Shown: positions 4,622 through 54,178 of the stretch, piece by piece | How the letters are laid out: the number at the start of each line of letters is the position of its first letter | Numbering within the stretch: position 1 is the stretch's first letter | Assembly: GCF_016903815.1 (NCBI RefSeq) | Contig: NZ_CP069973.1 | Source: Escherichia coli | Lineage (GTDB): Bacteria > Pseudomonadota > Gammaproteobacteria > Enterobacterales > Enterobacteriaceae | Direction: 5' to 3' (one strand) | Length of the DNA stretch: 64,000 nucleotides | Made by a program: the position numbers and the translations under genes | Notes under the pieces: generated by a model | Told to the model about the DNA's origin: nothing | The model's database searches: none | Seen by the model: the letters and a program-made list of their open reading frames with translations, nothing else

Positions 4622-7600
4622 TTACACCTTTTCCACATTCACAAGGAAGGACTTAAACTCTGGCGTCTGCGTGTTCGCATCACCAACGAATGGCGTTAAC
4701 GTATTGGCAATAAAGCCTTTTTTCGCAACACCTTCATAGCCCCAGTGAATCGGAATACCGATGGTATCGATATCTTTGCCGTTCGCTTTCAGCGTGCGAA
4801 TACGTTTGGTCACCACCGCTTTGGCTTTTATATAGCCACGGTTGGAGGAGACTTTCACTGTATCGCCCTGGGCAATGCCAAGTTTATTCGCCAGCGACTC
4901 ACCGATTTCCACAAACTGCTCTGGTTGCAAAATCGCGTTCAACAGCGCGTGTTTGGTCCAGTAGTGGAAGTGCTCGGTCAGACGATAGGTGGTTCCGACA
5001 TACGGGAACTTATCGGCTTTACCCAATGCTTCGGCGTCGTCTTTAAAGATACGTGCAGCCGGGTTCGAGATAACGTTTGGATGCAGCGGGTTAGTTCCCA
5101 GCGGCGTTTCAAACGGCTCGTAGTGTTCCGGGAACGGACCTTCCGCCATCTTATCGAGGGCAAACAGACGCCCCATGCCTTCCTGCTGCATGATAAACGG
5201 CCCAACGCCACTGCCCGGAGGCGCTGCGCTGTAGTCCGGAATATCCCAGCCGGTCCACTTAGTGCCGTCCCATTTCAGCAACTGACGCTTCGGATCCCAC
5301 GGGTTACCCTGCGGATCTGCGGAGGCGCGGTTATACAGAATGCGGCGGTTAAGCGGCCATGCCCATGCCCAGCCCAGCGTGTTACCGAGGCCAGACGGAT
5401 CGGCGTTATCACGACGCGCCATCTGGTTGCCCTCTGGCGTCCAGCTACCGGCGAAAATCCAGCAGCCACAGGAGGTGGTACCGTCATCGCGCAGTTGGGC
5501 GAACGAGCTAAGTTGTTGGCCTTTCTTGACGATAACCGCACCGGTTGCCGGATCGGTAATATCGGCCAGCGCCTTACCGTTGCTCTCCATCGCCACTTCT
5601 TCCGACTTCGGCTCATGCGGGATGGCGTAGTTCCAGGTCATGTTCAGCACCTGGTCCGGGTTCGCGCCACCCTGTTCGGCATACATCTTGCGCAAGCGCA
5701 GGAAGATACCGGAGAGGATCTCGCCGTCAGTCAGCGCAATCCCAGGGGCGTCCGCACCTTTCCAGTGCCACTGCAACCAGCGACCTGAGTTAACGATTGA
5801 ACCGTTCTCTTCCGCGAAGCAGGTCGATGGCAGACGGAACACTTCGGTCTGGATCTTCGACGAGTCAACTTCGTTCAGCTCACCGTGGTTCTGCCAGAAG
5901 TTAGAGGTTTCAGTGTTCAGCGGGTCGATGGTGACGAGGAACTTCAGTTTCGACAGACAACCGATCACTTTGTTTTTGTTCGGGAATGAGGCAACAGGGT
6001 TAAAACCCTGGCAGATATAGCCATTGACCTTGCCTTCTTTCATCATCTCGAAGTATTGCAGGACGTCGTAGCCTTTATCCCACTTCGGCAACCAGTCAAA
6101 GCCCCAGCTATTTTCCGCCGTCGCTTTATCACCAAAGAAGGCCTTCATCATAGAGACGAAGAATTTCGGGTAGTTGCCCCAGTAGTTTACCTGGCCTTCC
6201 AGCAGCGGTTTTGGCGTGTTGGCGGTAAGGTAGGTTTGCAGATCGGTCTGCTTCTCGCTTGGCAGCGTCATGTAACCCGGCAGGCTCTGCGACAGCAGCC
6301 CCAGGTCCGTCAGCCCCTGAATATTGGAGTGACCGCGCAGGGCGTTAACGCCGCCGCCGGCCATCCCCATATTGCCGAGCAGCAGCTGGATCATCGCCAT
6401 CGTACGAATGTTTTGCGCACCAACGGAGTGTTGCGTCCAGCCGAGGGCATACAGGAACGAGGCAGTTTTATCGTGTGCACTGGTTTCGGCGATGTATTCG
6501 CAGACTTTCAGGAACGCGTCTTTTGGCGTACCACAGATGTTTTCAACCACATCTGGCGTGTAGCGGGAAACGTGCTGTTTCAGCAAGTTCCACACGCAGC
6601 GCGGATGTTGCAGCGTGGTATCGCGTTTGGCGAAGCCGTTTTCGTCCAGTTCGTAAGTCCAGGAGGATTTATCGTACTTGCGTTTTTCCGCGTCGTAGCC
6701 GGTGAACAGGCCATCTTCAAAGCCGTAATCCTCACGCACGATAAGGCTAGCGTTGGTATAGGCTTCGGTATATTCGCGGTTGAATTTTTCATTGTTCAGC
6801 AGGTACAGCAATACGCCTGACAGGAAAGCAATGTCAGTACCGGAACGAATAGGGGCATAGTAGTCAGCCACCGCCGCCGTACGCGTAAAGCGAGGATCGA
6901 TCACAATCAGCTTCGCGCCGTTGTGAATTTTGGCTTCCATCGCCCAGCGGAACCCGACCGGGTGAGCTTCAGCGGCATTACCGCCCATCACCACGACGAG
7001 GTTGGCGTTCTTGATGTCGACCCAGTGGTTGGTCATCGCACCGCGACCAAATGTTGGAGCAAGACTTGCTACCGTTGGTCCGTGTCAGACACGCGCCTGG
7101 TTGTCGACCGCGAGCATCCCCAGCGCGCGGGAGAATTTTTGCGTTAAATAGCCGGTTTCGTTACTCGACGCGGAAGCACAAAGCATCCCGGTGGAGAGCC
7201 AGCGGTTAACAGTCACGCCTTCGGCGTTTTGCGCAATGTAGTTAGCATCGCGGTCTTCTTTCATCAGTTTGGCGATGCGATCAAACGCCTCTTCCCAACT
7301 GATTTGCTGCCATTTATCAGAACCTGGCGCACGGTATTCCGGAAACTTCAGACGGCTTTCGGAGTGGATGAAATCCACCAGGCCAGCGCCTTTCGGACAA
7401 AGTGCACCGCGGTTGACCGGGTGATCCGGATCGCCTTCGATATGGAAGATAGATGCTTTGGCGTTTTTTGCTCCGTCACCGAGGCTGTACATCAACAGCC
7501 CACAGCCTACGGAACAATAGGTGCAGGTATTACGGGTTTCGCGGGTGCGCAGCAGTTTATACTGCCGGGTTTCCGCGAGTGCTACGCTGGGTGCAAAACC

Positions 7601-7672
7601 CAGTGCCGCTGCCGTGGTGCCTGCCATACCGCCAGCGCAGATCTTAAAGAACTGCCTTCTGCTGACCTGCAT
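4622..7672 (-). CDS. fdoG: formate dehydrogenase-O catalytic subunit, selenoprotein; in-frame UGA (Sec) at 7085..7087
   Basis: Track ORFs 7085..7672 and 4622..7036 are in one frame separated only by TGA; Tat-like RRQFFK N-terminus; reading continues HGPTVASLAPTFGRGA-MTNHW after the UGA. Confidence 0.93.
7040..7084 (-). promoter_or_regulatory. candidate SECIS stem-loop directly 3' of the fdoG UGA
   Basis: mRNA after UGA contains GCAAG-U-CUUGC nested within GACCAA...UUGGUC. Confidence 0.5.
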
Positions 7673-7865: not shown

Positions 7866-8699
7866 GTGAAAAAAACACAGCAAAAAGAAATCGAAAATGT
7901 GACAAATGTCACAGGTGTTCGTCAAATTGAGTTATGGCGGCGTGATGATTTACAACACCCACGGTTAGATGAGGTCGCGGAAGAAGTTCCCGTTGCGCTG
8001 GTCTACAACGGCATTTCGCATGTGGTGATGATGGCGTCGCCCAAAGACCTTGAGTACTTTGCGCTCGGTTTTTCGCTTTCCGAGGGGATTATCGAAAGTC
8101 CGCGCGATATCTTCGGTATGGATGTCGTTCCTTCCTGTAATGGTCTGGAAGTGCAAATTGAGCTTTCCAGCCGCCGCTTTATGGGGTTGAAGGAGCGCCG
8201 CCGGGCGCTGGCGGGACGTACGGGCTGTGGCGTATGCGGTGTAGAACAGCTTAACGATATCGGTAAACCGGTGCAGCCGCTGCCGTTCACCCAGACGTTT
8301 GATCTCAACAAACTGGATGATGCATTACGTCATCTCAATGATTTCCAGCCAGTGGGGCAACTGACTGGTTGTACTCACGCCGCTGCATGGATGTTGCCAT
8401 CTGGCGAACTGGTCGGCGGGCATGAAGACGTGGGTCGCCATGTGGCGCTGGACAAACTGTTAGGCCGCCGGTCACAAGAAGGGGAAAGCTGGCAGCAAGG
8501 TGCGGTACTGGTTTCCAGCCGTGCCAGTTATGAAATGGTGCAAAAGTCGGCGATGTGCGGCGTAGAGATTTTGTTTGCGGTGTCTGCCGCGACCACGCTT
8601 GCTGTAGAAGTGGCTGAGCGCTGTAATCTGACACTGGTAGGTTTTTGTAAACCGGGTCGGGCAACGGTTTATACCCATCCGCAGCGTTTGAGCAATTAA
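7866..8699 (+). CDS. fdhD: formate dehydrogenase sulfurtransferase/accessory protein FdhD
   Basis: 277-aa ORF; recognised sequence; divergent from fdoG. Confidence 0.93.
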
Positions 8700-8706
8700 T
8701 TAAAAT

Positions 8707-8747
8707 AAGTCCTGCGATATATATTAAATTGCAGGACTTATTCATTT
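8707..8747 (+). terminator. hairpin after fdhD (AAGTCCTGC...GCAGGACTT followed by a T-rich tail)
   Basis: 9-bp perfect inverted repeat with 15-nt loop, seen directly. Confidence 0.5.
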
Positions 8748-8748
8748 C

Positions 8749-9429
8749 GTGAATTTTATTATTTTATTTATAAACAAAGCGCGTGTAGTGGCGTTAACGC
8801 CTGCGCTGCAACCTATTGATGGCGTGGCGGTAAGTTATATTGATACTGCCGTGGCGTTGGGTAATACCATTAACGAAATGGATAAATATTACACCCAGGA
8901 AAATTATAAAGACGATGCGTTTGCGAAAGGGAAAACGCTGCACCAGACATTCTTAAAAAATCTTGAAGCCTTTGAACCTGTAGCAGAATCTTATCATGCG
9001 GCGATTCAGGAAATTAACGATAAGCGCCAGCTTGCGGAACTGAAAAATATTGAACAAAGAGAAGGGAAAACATTCCACTACTACTCTCTGGCAGTCATGA
9101 TTTCAGCGAAACAAATTAATAACCTGATTTCGCAAGAGAAGTTTGATGTTGATGCGGCAATGAAGAAAGTCTCTGAACTGGAAACGCTGGTGGCGCAGGC
9201 CAAAGAAGCGGATAAAGGCGGTATGAATTTCTCGTTCATTAATTCGGCAGACCAGTATCAACTCGAGGCTAAAAAATATGTTCGCCGCGTCAGAGATAAA
9301 GTTCCGTACTCTGACTGGGATAAAGAGCAACTTCAGGATGCAAACACAAGCTGGATGGTCGACGACTCATTTCCGCGAGCGTTACGCGAGTACAACGAAA
9401 TGGTCGATGACTATAATAGCCTGCGTTAA
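8749..9429 (+). CDS. yiiG: YiiG-like protein (DUF3829 family as I recall); ORF looks 5'-truncated
   Basis: 226-aa ORF with GTG start, no SD, no signal peptide, begins 2 nt after the fdhD terminator; I recall K-12 YiiG as about 351 aa. Confidence 0.55.
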   Translation: MNFIILFINKARVVALTPALQPIDGVAVSYIDTAVALGNTINEMDKYYTQENYKDDAFAKGKTLHQTFLKNLEAFEPVAESYHAAIQEINDKRQLAELKNIEQREGKTFHYYSLAVMISAKQINNLISQEKFDVDAAMKKVSELETLVAQAKEADKGGMNFSFINSADQYQLEAKKYVRRVRDKVPYSDWDKEQLQDANTSWMVDDSFPRALREYNEMVDDYNSLR

Positions 9430-9456
9430 ACGTTTTTGATTTTGGTGATAAATGCA

Positions 9457-9481
9457 GTGTCGGATGCGGCGCATCCGACAC
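9457..9481. repeat. REP-like perfect palindrome GTGTCGGATGCGGCGCATCCGACAC between convergent yiiG and frvR
   Basis: Seen directly; contains the GCCGGATGCGGCG-type REP core. Confidence 0.7.
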
Positions 9482-9484
9482 AGT

Positions 9485-11233
9485 TCACCCCTTGTGAAGT
9501 AACTCCATAAATGCCTCATATCCTGTTAACCCGGCAATAACCTCTGCCGGATGCTGACACAATACGCTTGCCAGATAGCTGAATATTTTTAGCTCATGAC
9601 GCGCATCGGCGGCGGCACAGGCGATCAGCACATGGTTAACTACTTCGTTATTCACCTCAACCGGTTGGGCGAGGGTAATAAAAAATCCACGAAAACGGCG
9701 TTCCTGTTCGCTCCAGCAATGTGGGATGGCGAGACGATTAACAATCAGGTTTTCGCCTTCGCTTTCGCGGGCGATGATCCGTTGTACTTCATCGGCGGTA
9801 ATGTGGTGTTGCGTCACTAATTGCGCACAAATTTGCCGGGTAATATGTTGCCAGCTTTCACCACGTACATTCGAATAATGAAAACTTCCGGGGGCAGAAA
9901 AAAAACGCTCCGGTTGCTGGCGAATAAATGCCGTCGCCAGAAAATGTTTTATTTGTTCGATACCGGCAGCCGTAATGATATTTTTTACGATGATGCAATT
10001 ATTGACCGCATCATCCAGTAAATAATGGCTGTTATTAATGATCAATAACGGCTCAATCTCTTCGCGAATGGCAACAAGTTCGCTTAAGCTACGGGCAATA
10101 ATCACCCGACAATGTAAAACATCGCGCTCAATGGCGAGCTGATTAATGGTGGCAATCGCGTTCTGGTCCGAGAGCAAAATGATCGGCTGGCGTTCGTTTT
10201 GATGCCGTTCCAGCGCACAGGCAAAATACAAACCGATCAGATCGCTGTCGAAAAGGGGAATATCGAGTTGTTCACGCAGTAGCGTAATAAAGTGCAGACT
10301 CATATCAAAGGCCGCAGGCCAGGCGGCTTTCAGGTTATTCATGCTGCTTTGGCGGTGCTCACCTATCCACACCGGCGCGGCAAGGCAACGTAATAAATGC
10401 CCGGTAATATTCTCAACCAGTTGCGTATCAATAATATTCAATGACGCAATGCCCGGCACCCTTTGCAGCAATGCCAGCACATTATCGACACAAATAACCT
10501 GCGCCTGTTGATGCTGTTTCTCTATCAACCCCGTCAGGGTTCTTACAGCGTTATCACCAAGAAACAGGCCGCTTTGTTCAACGATTTGTTTTATCTCGTC
10601 ACCGGGATATTGCGGCCACTCATCGGTCAGTTGATTACGCAGGGCGTAAATCGCCAGAATCAGGCTGGAGAGATAATCACCCTGCATCAGCGGCCAGCGG
10701 TGTTGGTTGTCGCAGACCGTGGATAATTGCTGAAGGTTGTCTCGTGTTACGCCCGCCAGAGGAATTAAAAACGGATCTTTGCGTAAAAGATTCGCCAGCA
10801 AAATAATGCGTTTCTCTTCTGTCTCATCAATGAAATGGCCCAAACCAGGGCGACTAGCGAGACAAAAACCGCGTTCATAGCGCTGTTTCAGGCGGGGCAG
10901 GCGCTCTGCTACCCACGTTTCTGGCAAATTAAGCGCCGAGGCGAGTTGCGCACGGGGAGTGAAGGTATTCAGTAATAGCAGCGCCAGCAGCCGATCGTCG
11001 TTATCGTGCTTTTGCAGCAACTGAAAAAAGCTGCGGCGCTCGAAGATTTCCAGCTGATAGCCCGCGTTGCCACTGGCGGAAATGCGGGCTTTGCCGTTAA
11101 GGGTAAAGTTGAGATAGTCAATATCACGCAGAATGGTCCTACCAGAAACGCCAGTCTGTTGCGCCAGCTCGCCAGGCGTGCGTGGCTGTTGCTCCAGCAG
11201 ATCGACAATCTTTAACTGGCGTTCGTTTAGCAT
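9485..11233 (-). CDS. frvR: frv operon transcriptional regulator
   Basis: 582-aa ORF; synteny with frvXBA. Confidence 0.88.
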   Translation of the reverse strand: MLNERQLKIVDLLEQQPRTPGELAQQTGVSGRTILRDIDYLNFTLNGKARISASGNAGYQLEIFERRSFFQLLQKHDNDDRLLALLLLNTFTPRAQLASALNLPETWVAERLPRLKQRYERGFCLASRPGLGHFIDETEEKRIILLANLLRKDPFLIPLAGVTRDNLQQLSTVCDNQHRWPLMQGDYLSSLILAIYALRNQLTDEWPQYPGDEIKQIVEQSGLFLGDNAVRTLTGLIEKQHQQAQVICVDNVLALLQRVPGIASLNIIDTQLVENITGHLLRCLAAPVWIGEHRQSSMNNLKAAWPAAFDMSLHFITLLREQLDIPLFDSDLIGLYFACALERHQNERQPIILLSDQNAIATINQLAIERDVLHCRVIIARSLSELVAIREEIEPLLIINNSHYLLDDAVNNCIIVKNIITAAGIEQIKHFLATAFIRQQPERFFSAPGSFHYSNVRGESWQHITRQICAQLVTQHHITADEVQRIIARESEGENLIVNRLAIPHCWSEQERRFRGFFITLAQPVEVNNEVVNHVLIACAAADARHELKIFSYLASVLCQHPAEVIAGLTGYEAFMELLHKG

Positions 11234-14677: not shown

Positions 14678-16072
14678 ATGAAAAAATCGACATTATCTTT
14701 AGCCATCGGTTTATTATTGGCATGTAGTACCGGAATGGCAAAAACACAGCATTTAACGCTGGAACAACGCATGGCATTGCTGGAAGAACGCCTGGAAGCG
14801 GCAGAAATGCGGGCAGCAAAAGCAGAGAGCCAGGTTAAACAGCTGCAGACACAACAAGCCGCTGAGATCCGCGAAATTAAGGCTGCCCAGGGCAATACGC
14901 CGGTAAATGGACAGGCAACGGCGGAATCTGCAAAGAAAAATTCCACCTCACCTAATCTTTTGCTCTCAGGTTATGGCGATTTAAAAATCTACGGCGATGT
15001 AGAATTTAATATGGATGCGGAAAGTAATCATGGCCTGCTGGCAATGACCAACGCTGATGTGAATAGCGATCCCACTAATGAACAGTGGAATCTCAATGGT
15101 CGTATTCTGTTAGGTTTTGATGGTATGCGAAAACTGGATAATGGCTATTTCGCCGGGTTCTCCGCACAACCGCTGGGGGACATGCACGGTTCAGTAAATA
15201 TCGATGATGCGGTATTCTTCTTTGGCAAAGAAAACGACTGGAAGGTCAAAGTAGGCCGTTTTGAAGCCTACGATATGTTCCCGCTGAATCAGGATACCTT
15301 TGTTGAACATTCCGGTAATACTGCGAACGATCTTTATGACGATGGCAGCGGTTATATCTATATGATGAAAGAGGGCCGCGGGCGCTCTAACGCTGGCGGT
15401 AATTTCCTCGTCAGCAAACAACTTGATAACTGGTATTTTGAATTAAACACGTTACTTGAAGACGGAACATCTTTATATAATGACGGTAATTATCATGGAC
15501 GCGATATGGAGCAGCAGAAAAATGTTGCTTATCTGCGTCCGGTAATTGCCTGGTCGCCGACGGAAGAATTTACCGTTTCCGCAGCGATGGAAGCGAACGT
15601 GGTAAATAATGCTTATGGTTATACCGATAGCAAGGGTAATTTTGTCGATCAGTCCGATCGTACCGGCTATGGTATGAGCATGACCTGGAATGGCCTGAAA
15701 ACGGATCCGGAAAATGGCGTCGTGGTTAATCTTAATACCGCCTATTTAGATGCTAATAATGAGAAAGATTTCACTGCCGGGATTAACGCGCTGTGGAAAC
15801 GTTTCGAGCTAGGTTATATCTACGCGCACAATAAGATTGATGAATTCAGCGGTGTAGTTTGTGATAACGACTGCTGGATTGATGATGAAGGGACGTACAC
15901 CATTCACACCATTCATGCGTCTTATCAGTTCGCTAATGTGATGGATATGGAGAACTTTAATATTTACCTCGGGACGTATTACTCCATTCTGGATAGCGAC
16001 GGTGATAAAAAACACGGTGATGATACTGATGACCGTTACGGCGCACGCGTTCGCTTTAAATACTTCTTCTGA
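14678..16072 (+). CDS. outer-membrane carbohydrate porin, ScrY/LamB-like, with N-terminal coiled-coil extension
   Basis: Signal peptide MKKSTLSLAIGLLLACSTGMA; heptad-like LEQRMALLEERLEAAEMRAAKAESQVKQLQ; Tyr/Gly/Asn/Asp-rich beta-barrel-like body; C-terminal ...RFKYFF. Confidence 0.7.
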   Translation: MKKSTLSLAIGLLLACSTGMAKTQHLTLEQRMALLEERLEAAEMRAAKAESQVKQLQTQQAAEIREIKAAQGNTPVNGQATAESAKKNSTSPNLLLSGYGDLKIYGDVEFNMDAESNHGLLAMTNADVNSDPTNEQWNLNGRILLGFDGMRKLDNGYFAGFSAQPLGDMHGSVNIDDAVFFFGKENDWKVKVGRFEAYDMFPLNQDTFVEHSGNTANDLYDDGSGYIYMMKEGRGRSNAGGNFLVSKQLDNWYFELNTLLEDGTSLYNDGNYHGRDMEQQKNVAYLRPVIAWSPTEEFTVSAAMEANVVNNAYGYTDSKGNFVDQSDRTGYGMSMTWNGLKTDPENGVVVNLNTAYLDANNEKDFTAGINALWKRFELGYIYAHNKIDEFSGVVCDNDCWIDDEGTYTIHTIHASYQFANVMDMENFNIYLGTYYSILDSDGDKKHGDDTDDRYGARVRFKYFF

Positions 16073-26120: not shown

Positions 26121-26220
26121 CCGGAGTGTAGGCCTGATAAGACGCTATCAGCGTCGCATCAGGCATCCTGCTCAAATGCCGGATGCGGCGTAAACGCCTT
26201 ATCCTGCCTACAAATGCGGA
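26121..26220. repeat. REP cluster between yiiM and cpxA
   Basis: GCCTGATAAGACGC...GCGTCGCATCAGGC and GCCGGATGCGGCGTAAACGCCTTATCC palindromic units. Confidence 0.75.
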
Positions 26221-31204: not shown

Positions 31205-31290
31205 CGCTTATCAGGCCTACATGAATTCTGCAATTTATTGAATTTGCAAACTTTTGTAGGCCGGATAAGGCGTTCGCGCCGCATCCGGCA
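31205..31290. repeat. REP elements between pfkA and sbp
   Basis: GCTTATCAGGCCTACA and TGTAGGCCGGATAAGGCGTTCGCGCCGCATCCGGCA units. Confidence 0.7.
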
Positions 31291-53000: not shown

Positions 53001-54178
53001 AACGGGTATGGCGGCGTGAACGGGACCTGACGGGCTGGATGTCGCTGTCATGGAAACCGGAAGTGCCCTGGTACGGCTGGGACGGCGACCGGCTGACCAC
53101 AATACAGAACGACAGAACCCGCATCCAGACGGTTTATCAGCCGGGGAGCTTCACGCCACTCATCAGAGTTGAAACTGCCACCGGTGAGCTGGCGAAAACG
53201 CAGCGCCGCAGCCTGGCGGATGCGCTTCAGCAGTCCGGCGGTGAAGACGGTGGCAGTGTGGTGTTCCCGCCGGTGCTGGTGCAGATGCTCGACCGGCTGG
53301 AAAGTGAAATCCTGGCTGACCGGGTGAGTGAGGAAAGCCGCCGCTGGCTGGCATCGTGCGGCCTGACGGTGGAGCAGATACAAAACCAGATGGACCCGGT
53401 GTACACGCCGGCGCGAAAAATCCACCTGTACCACTGCGACCATCGCGGCCTGCCGCTGGCGCTTGTCAGCACGGAAGGGGCAACAGAATGGTGCGCAGAA
53501 TACGATGAATGGGGCAACCTGCTGAATGAAGAGAACCCGCATCAGCTGCAGCAGCTCATCCGCCTGCCGGGTCAGCAGTATGATGAGGAGTCCGGCCTGT
53601 ATTACAACCGCCACCGCTATTATGACCCGCTGCAGGGGCGGTATATCACTCAGGATCCGATTGGGCTGAAGGGGGGATGGAATTTTTATCAGTATCCGTT
53701 GAATCCGATCTCAAATATAGATCCATTAGGATTATATGAATTTAAATCAAAAAATATAGATGATATTGGAATATTTGCATTGGCAATGTGTAATGGAGAA
53801 TCAATTAACGAGAATAAAGAATATGGTGGGCTAATATGTAAGAAGCAAGGTGAATATTTCCCCATGAATCCGATAAGTTCAAATGATAATGATAGTGTAG
53901 ACTTGCGAAATATAAAATGCCCTGAAGGTTCAGAGAGAGTAGGCGATTATCACACTCACGGTTTTTACTCTGACGATAAAGGCAATAAAGTAACAAAAGA
54001 AAATGATGTTTATGATAGTCTAAATTTTTCAAGCAAAGATTTAACGAATTCTTATATGAATGGAATGGGAAAAAAAGAATACAGTAGTTACTTGGGAACA
54101 CCAAATAACACCTATCTAAAATATAATCCCAAAGCTAAAGGGAATGGAGTTACAATTATCAGGCAAGGGAGTAATTAA
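50006..54178 (+). CDS. Rhs-family polymorphic toxin (1390 aa): RhsA-like N-terminus, YD-repeat core, AT-rich C-terminal toxin tip
   Basis: N-terminus [17 protein letters not shown]...; many YD/RYxYD repeats; core-end motif [27 protein letters not shown] near aa 1243; composition switch near 53690. Confidence 0.9.

Follow-up and report, generated by a model that had tools for sequence, protein, structure and literature searches.

The yiiG gene of Escherichia coli K-12 MG1655 (b3896) comprises 1,056 nt, encodes 351 amino acids and is annotated as "DUF3829 domain-containing lipoprotein YiiG". Its product opens with a lipoprotein signal peptide and a lipobox cysteine (MKRNLLSSAIIVAIMSLGLTG followed by CDD; ...SLGLTG-CDD) and spans positions 2-285 of the 285-position Pfam DUF3829 profile (PF12889), as does that of a divergent full-length allele from KP63 (84% identical). 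In the literature, yiiG appears only as the gene of an uncharacterised lipoprotein; the K-12 protein found no meaningful relative in a sequence search of the PDB and gives only a sub-threshold LppK match in NCBIfam. Our search of the literature on yiiG and DUF3829 found no paper on a truncated yiiG pseudogene; RefSeq/PGAP, on the other hand, calls exactly the yiiG-derived interval described here a pseudogene in the genomes AR_0067 and 7/2.

Here, we examined the yiiG locus in a 64,000-nt stretch of E. coli DNA (hereafter, the window), the first 25 kb of which are 100% identical to several finished genomes, including AR_0067, DA33137, 222 and WCHEC4533. A preliminary description, made from the sequence of the window, had proposed that yiiG is 5'-truncated. 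The comparisons below bear this out, and we conclude that 8788-9429 is almost certainly a non-functional remnant, i.e. a pseudogene, of the yiiG lipoprotein gene left by a 478-bp deletion between short direct repeats.

Domain content and anatomy of the locus

The product of the 226-aa open reading frame (ORF), whose length and GTG start are as the preliminary description gave them, matches DUF3829 with E = 2.6e-74 (250.8 bits; cut-off 26.8) and covers profile positions 64-285 only, leaving the domain incomplete; NCBIfam contains no family for it. The ORF encodes no cysteine and therefore has no possible lipobox and cannot specify a lipoprotein, in agreement with the earlier remark that it lacks a signal peptide. 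The remnant occupies the orthologous position between fdhD and frvR (fdhD > yiiG > < frvR), with both neighbours intact (Table 1), and window position 8700 is the first base past the fdhD stop codon.

Table 1. Features of the fdhD-yiiG-frvR region in the window (L003, MG1655 locus).
Feature	Coordinates	Strand	Remarks
fdhD, intact, upstream neighbour	7866..8699	+	277-aa ORF; PGAP CDS with the same coordinates in the identical AR_0067 record
Terminator-like hairpin after fdhD	8704..8742	+	15-bp stem, 9-nt loop; common to K-12
Retained 5' part of the fdhD-yiiG spacer	8743..8787	+	colinear with MG1655 L003 1394-1438
yiiG-like ORF	8749..9429	+	GTG start, 226 aa; six-frame ORF list
yiiG remnant	8788..9429	+	codons 139-351 and stop codon; frame still open
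Deletion junction, one leftover direct-repeat copy GTGGCGTT	8788..8795	+	matches L003 1439-1446 and 1917-1924
frvR, intact, convergent downstream neighbour	9485..11233	-	K-12-like synteny

Window and MG1655 were compared without gaps, anchored on the fdhD stop codon and then on the yiiG stop codon; these comparisons superseded a MAFFT pairwise alignment, which was dropped because its gap was wrongly placed. From the fdhD side, window 8700-8795 is colinear with L003 1351-1446 (3 mismatches), and from the yiiG side 8788-9429 is colinear with L003 1917-2558 (30 mismatches). The intact allele carries GTGGCGTT at both ends of the missing segment, in copies 478 bp apart whose similarity extends to 11/13 identity over 13 nt (GTGTAGTGGCGTT / GTGCTGTGGCGTT), and a repeat finder independently reported the flanking pair as families D1/D5 with a spacing of 478. 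A single copy remains at the junction in the window, as expected of a deletion between short direct repeats. Repeats of 8 nt are frequent by chance, 1.2 kb containing 15 repeat families, and the ends of both deletions seen at this locus, the present one and a 135-bp deletion found in other genomes, coincide exactly with the two longest pairs of direct repeats in the intact gene (D5 and D2).

Measured on the MG1655 allele, the deletion removes 478 bp, made up of 56 nt before the ATG, 138 codons and one repeat copy. The upstream DNA lost (TTCTTTTTTCATTTATTATGTTCACTCTCTTATCTATATATTTATAAGGCAATTAAATG) contains TAAGG, 7 nt before the ATG, as its sole Shine-Dalgarno-like element, and the coding part lost comprises the start codon, the signal peptide with its lipobox, a Pro/Ala/Glu-rich linker and DUF3829 residues 73-138 (~66 residues). 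The segment missing from the window corresponds, within intact yiiG, to L003 1503-1916. True yiiG sequence begins at 8788 with codon 139 (V-A-L-T-P...), and the first 13 codons of the ORF (8749-8787, MNFIILFINKARV) are fdhD-yiiG spacer read in frame; the ORF measures 226 rather than 213 aa because these spacer codons lie open in frame with a GTG. The earlier estimate of roughly 125 lost codons was thus too low, whereas the K-12 length given there, about 351 aa, is correct; the reference protein is not one of about 226 aa with the same start. As a separate point of allelic variation, a 15-bp in-frame indel, situated between CTGAAGC repeats in the Pro/Ala/Glu linker, distinguishes intact yiiG alleles of 351 aa from those of 346 aa.

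The junction anatomy suggests a microhomology-mediated event, by replication slippage or illegitimate recombination between the short direct repeats, that would have joined the fdhD-yiiG spacer directly to codon 139 of yiiG. The 226-aa ORF is on this reading an accident: the 13 spacer codons that precede the junction contain no in-frame stop, and a GTG occurs there by chance.

Expression signals upstream of the remnant

None of the in-frame starts (GTG 8749, 8788, 8824 and 8851, TTG 8857, ATG 8878) is preceded at a usable spacing by a Shine-Dalgarno-like sequence, which for GTG 8749 confirms what had been noted. Consensus scans of 8500-9600 identified no promoter-like and no terminator-like site; the same scan upstream of intact K-12 yiiG was also blank, so the silence of the window scan is weak evidence and the lost promoter cannot be located by it. 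Relative to intact orthologues, the window copy has lost its start codon and translation signals. The TAAGG ribosome-binding element was removed with the last 56 nt before the start codon, and the promoter probably lay within the same 56 nt. On these sequence grounds, we infer that the remnant is not expressed.

The hairpin that follows fdhD folds at -20.2 kcal/mol (z = -5.35; 0/200 shuffles as stable) and is present in all alleles compared. The hairpin postulated earlier is thus real, although its stem ends 6 nt before GTG 8749 and not 2 nt as had been stated. Its tail, UUAUUCAUUU, has only a moderate U content, and no call was made there by the consensus terminator scan. The pair 8715/8731, at the end of the GUCCUGC/GCAGGAC core, is C-G in the window and K-12, U.G in Nissle, C.A in ST131 and UPEC129, and U-A in N96 (sites in L004, L012, L013 and L016); this variation looks like a compensatory series, which would support a functional stem.

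Frequency of truncated alleles and further decay

Among 5,426 complete E. coli genomes, 3,882 (72%) keep at least 80% of the 470-bp yiiG 5' segment and 3,916 show any match to it, while 5,369 contain some yiiG 3' sequence; by subtraction, ~1,453 retain the 3' part without the 5' segment. The full-length gene thus exists in related genomes, a check that the preliminary description had called for. A 60-nt probe for the window-type junction matched 945/5,426 genomes, including Nissle 1917, NC101 and clone D i14, and undercounts carriers, having missed an ST131-type copy (L016) that shares the junction, presumably because a SNP close by and a 1-bp indel interrupt every possible 28-nt seed. An ST131-type junction probe matched 1,038/5,426 genomes (413 exactly), a set that overlaps the first. 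About a quarter of sequenced E. coli, Nissle 1917 and ST131 among them, carry the same deletion.

Allele classes were assigned in a spread sample of 60 rows from the K-12 locus search. Intact yiiG accounted for ~43 rows, the 5' deletion alone, as in the window, for 3, the 5' deletion with loss of the 3' end for 5, and both of these lesions with a 135-bp internal deletion for 8 (including ST131); yiiG was absent from one (E2348/69). The E2348/69-derived record gave no match to yiiG. The fdhD-yiiG spacer is itself an insertion site (L006 4204-8191; L007 1-3964), at which E2348/69 and KP63 carry an ATP-binding protein gene and a tetratricopeptide-repeat/hypothetical protein gene; the full-length yiiG allele of KP63-type strains (147 genomes) is only ~84% identical. 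IS1 insertions in yiiG were seen in strains CUWW10 and TUM11356.

Copies that share the lesion have decayed further, with frameshifts, a stop codon, the 135-bp deletion and 3' loss. An A6-to-A5 frameshift is found in the B2-type copies of THO-008, AHB2 and UPEC129, and THO-008 additionally has a CAG-to-TAG stop. B2-type strains lack the 3' end of yiiG together with all of the frvRXBA operon, so that a RafY-like porin gene comes immediately after the remnant. The 135-bp in-frame deletion lies between AAGGGAAAAC repeats (family D2, spacing 135, the other long repeat pair of the intact gene) and occurs in Nissle and ST131 on the B2 background and in O139:H1 W13-16 on the window background. Changes specific to the B2 type number ~10 non-synonymous (one a stop) against 5 synonymous, a pattern consistent with relaxed constraint.

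Together, these observations make the yiiG locus a textbook case, in which deletions fall on the longest of the available short direct repeats and a pseudogene erodes step by step in different E. coli lineages; the truncation in the window, taken by itself, is an ordinary finding of little consequence.

One origin or several

The identical junction may have arisen repeatedly, by slippage at the same repeat, or once, with subsequent spread by homologous recombination. Recurrence would account for its presence on two allele backgrounds that are far apart (24-28 differences in up to 600 nt), one of window type with the signature QEVDDVTD and one of B2 type with EDAEGISE; the 135-bp AAGGGAAAAC deletion is likewise found on both backgrounds, and both deletions fall at the longest repeats available. 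Against this, mosaic remnants (L008 and L017) and shuffled fdhD alleles among carriers show that recombination has crossed the locus and could have carried a single junction onto different backgrounds, and the left-repeat variant GTGTAGTGGCGTT is the one kept at the junction in every copy examined. We regard repeated origin as a serious candidate whose chances fall somewhat short of even. Both histories fit the data, and the identity of the feature as a yiiG remnant is unaffected by the choice between them.

Possible selection for loss of yiiG

Lesions in yiiG are many and independent, and for that reason loss of YiiG could have been selected rather than merely tolerated, making the window allele one case of convergent adaptive inactivation of an envelope lipoprotein. 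E. coli genomes show the 478-bp 5' deletion, the 135-bp deletion (in two backgrounds), a frameshift, a nonsense codon, IS1 insertions and complete loss, and carriers include major extraintestinal lineages (ST131 and Nissle/CFT073-like B2). Mutations in the yiiG promoter and start codon were recovered in E. coli under antibiotic selection in the laboratory (PMC11742677). In Stenotrophomonas maltophilia, populations that evolved under ciprofloxacin or tobramycin are reported to have acquired frameshifts in the YiiG-family gene, and a population evolved under SXT a P195H substitution (PMC11047544). These reports allow an advantage of yiiG loss; we nevertheless consider selected loss an unlikely explanation. 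If loss were adaptive, it would give a first clue to the function of DUF3829, a family of uncharacterised envelope lipoproteins, although the window itself shows nothing of that. MarA ChIP-seq placed a binding site, gcgcgttatgctgac, inside yiiG (PMC5684230); the site lies at L003 1791, within the segment deleted in the window.

Constraint on the remaining frame

Alternatively, the product of the short ORF could be a functional DUF3829 protein that lacks its N-terminal part and stays in the cytoplasm; translation would begin at GTG 8749 or at an internal start, with expression through read-through from fdhD or from a cryptic promoter. The 226 codons of the ORF are open, with the 213-codon frame of the remnant intact, some databases list the product as a protein, and dN/dS between remnant and K-12 is 0.10, near the value for frvR (0.11) and at the level of comparisons between intact yiiG alleles.

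The low dN/dS is, however, accounted for by full-length siblings of the remnant. Using a chimeric query that combined the K-12 5' part with the window remnant, we found full-length alleles in N96 and 2020CK-00188 that differ from the remnant at only 5/642 nt (99.2% identical) and share all of its signature residues (Q228, E255, V259, D260, D293, V306, T325 and D330). Since these intact siblings are so close, the divergence between remnant and K-12 predates the deletion, and purifying selection on the remnant was rejected as a reading of its dN/dS. The window copy has only ~2 substitutions of its own (one synonymous and one non-synonymous), too few for a selection test, and their small number explains why the frame is still open; the open frame would thus reflect few substitutions since the loss in the lineage of the window, and not usage.

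Further points against a shortened functional protein are the lack of a Shine-Dalgarno-like sequence and of a promoter-like site, the strong hairpin just upstream, the absence from the product of an export signal and of 62 domain positions, the frameshifts, stop and deletions that the same allele has suffered in other lineages, and the PGAP pseudogene call. Read-through from fdhD and weak translation of the remnant may occur; a functional protein is very improbable.

The reverse polarity, with the short form ancestral and 478 bp gained by K-12, and an assembly artefact were refuted, with nothing found in their favour, and deserve practically no credence: the extra 478 bp encode a signal peptide, a linker and the first part of a domain whose Pfam model spans many species, their content is shared by a full-length allele only 84% identical and their 5' segment is possessed by 3,882 of the 5,426 genomes. 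The junction, for its part, is seen again in some 1,000 or more genomes that were finished independently.

Other features of the window

Several features elsewhere in the window were recorded in passing. A gene for a RafY-like glycoporin of 464 aa (14678-16072, plus strand; Pfam Porin_8, 514 bits) stands between frvA and rhaM, which in MG1655 are separated by no more than a 300-bp spacer; it is the same gene that adjoins the yiiG remnant in B2-type strains. An Rhs protein of 1,390 aa is encoded at 50006-54178 (plus strand), with DUF6531, 10 RHS repeats, the RHS core and a C-terminal DUF4329; its gene starts ~380 nt downstream of an L31 leader match (49575-49627), and this is probably a toxin locus that varies between strains. 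In the ORF list, fdoG is broken into pieces of 804 and 195 aa at an in-frame TGA (7085-7087), and PGAP annotates one fdoG CDS (4622-7672); because an Rfam SECIS_3 match (84 bits; 7032-7090, minus strand) coincides with the split, this TGA is a normal selenocysteine codon. Rfam matches at gathering level to naRNA4 (CssrE; 26131-26208, minus strand), ES036 (CssrF; 31213-31254, minus strand) and a ClpQY promoter element (44906-44963, minus strand) are ordinary features of the chromosomal region.

Comparison with annotated yiiG alleles

The truncated yiiG is a common and already annotated pseudogene allele, and in that sense already known. Public protein collections contain exact 226-aa, 213-aa and 183-aa translations, the 226-aa form occurring on at least 1,000 contigs, and some GenBank and UniRef records name the 226-aa product "putative lipoprotein". 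That name is misleading because the product has neither signal peptide nor lipobox and 13 of its codons are spacer; gene-finder calls of the 226-aa ORF mislead likewise.

Compared with MG1655 yiiG, which the preliminary description had suggested as the reference for alignment, the remnant is orthologous and syntenic and aligns without gaps to codons 139-351 and the stop codon, with 612/642 nt identical and 9 amino-acid differences. The clean 478-bp deletion leaves it without a start codon, ribosome-binding site, signal peptide, lipobox and the first 62 DUF3829 profile positions. PGAP arrived independently at a missing N-terminus: its pseudogenes AM446_RS26395 (AR_0067) and CRT46_RS21740 (7/2), annotated "YiiG family protein; incomplete; missing N-terminus", are 100% identical in sequence to the window remnant, with identical coordinates, and represent the same allele. 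The B2-type remnants of Nissle 1917 (ACFX5S_RS23265), ST131 (INT78_RS13825) and UPEC129 (J3P56_RS23660) share the junction GCGTGTAGTGGCGTTAA with the window; unlike it, they lie on the other allele background and are more decayed, with a 1-bp frameshift, a stop codon or the 135-bp deletion.
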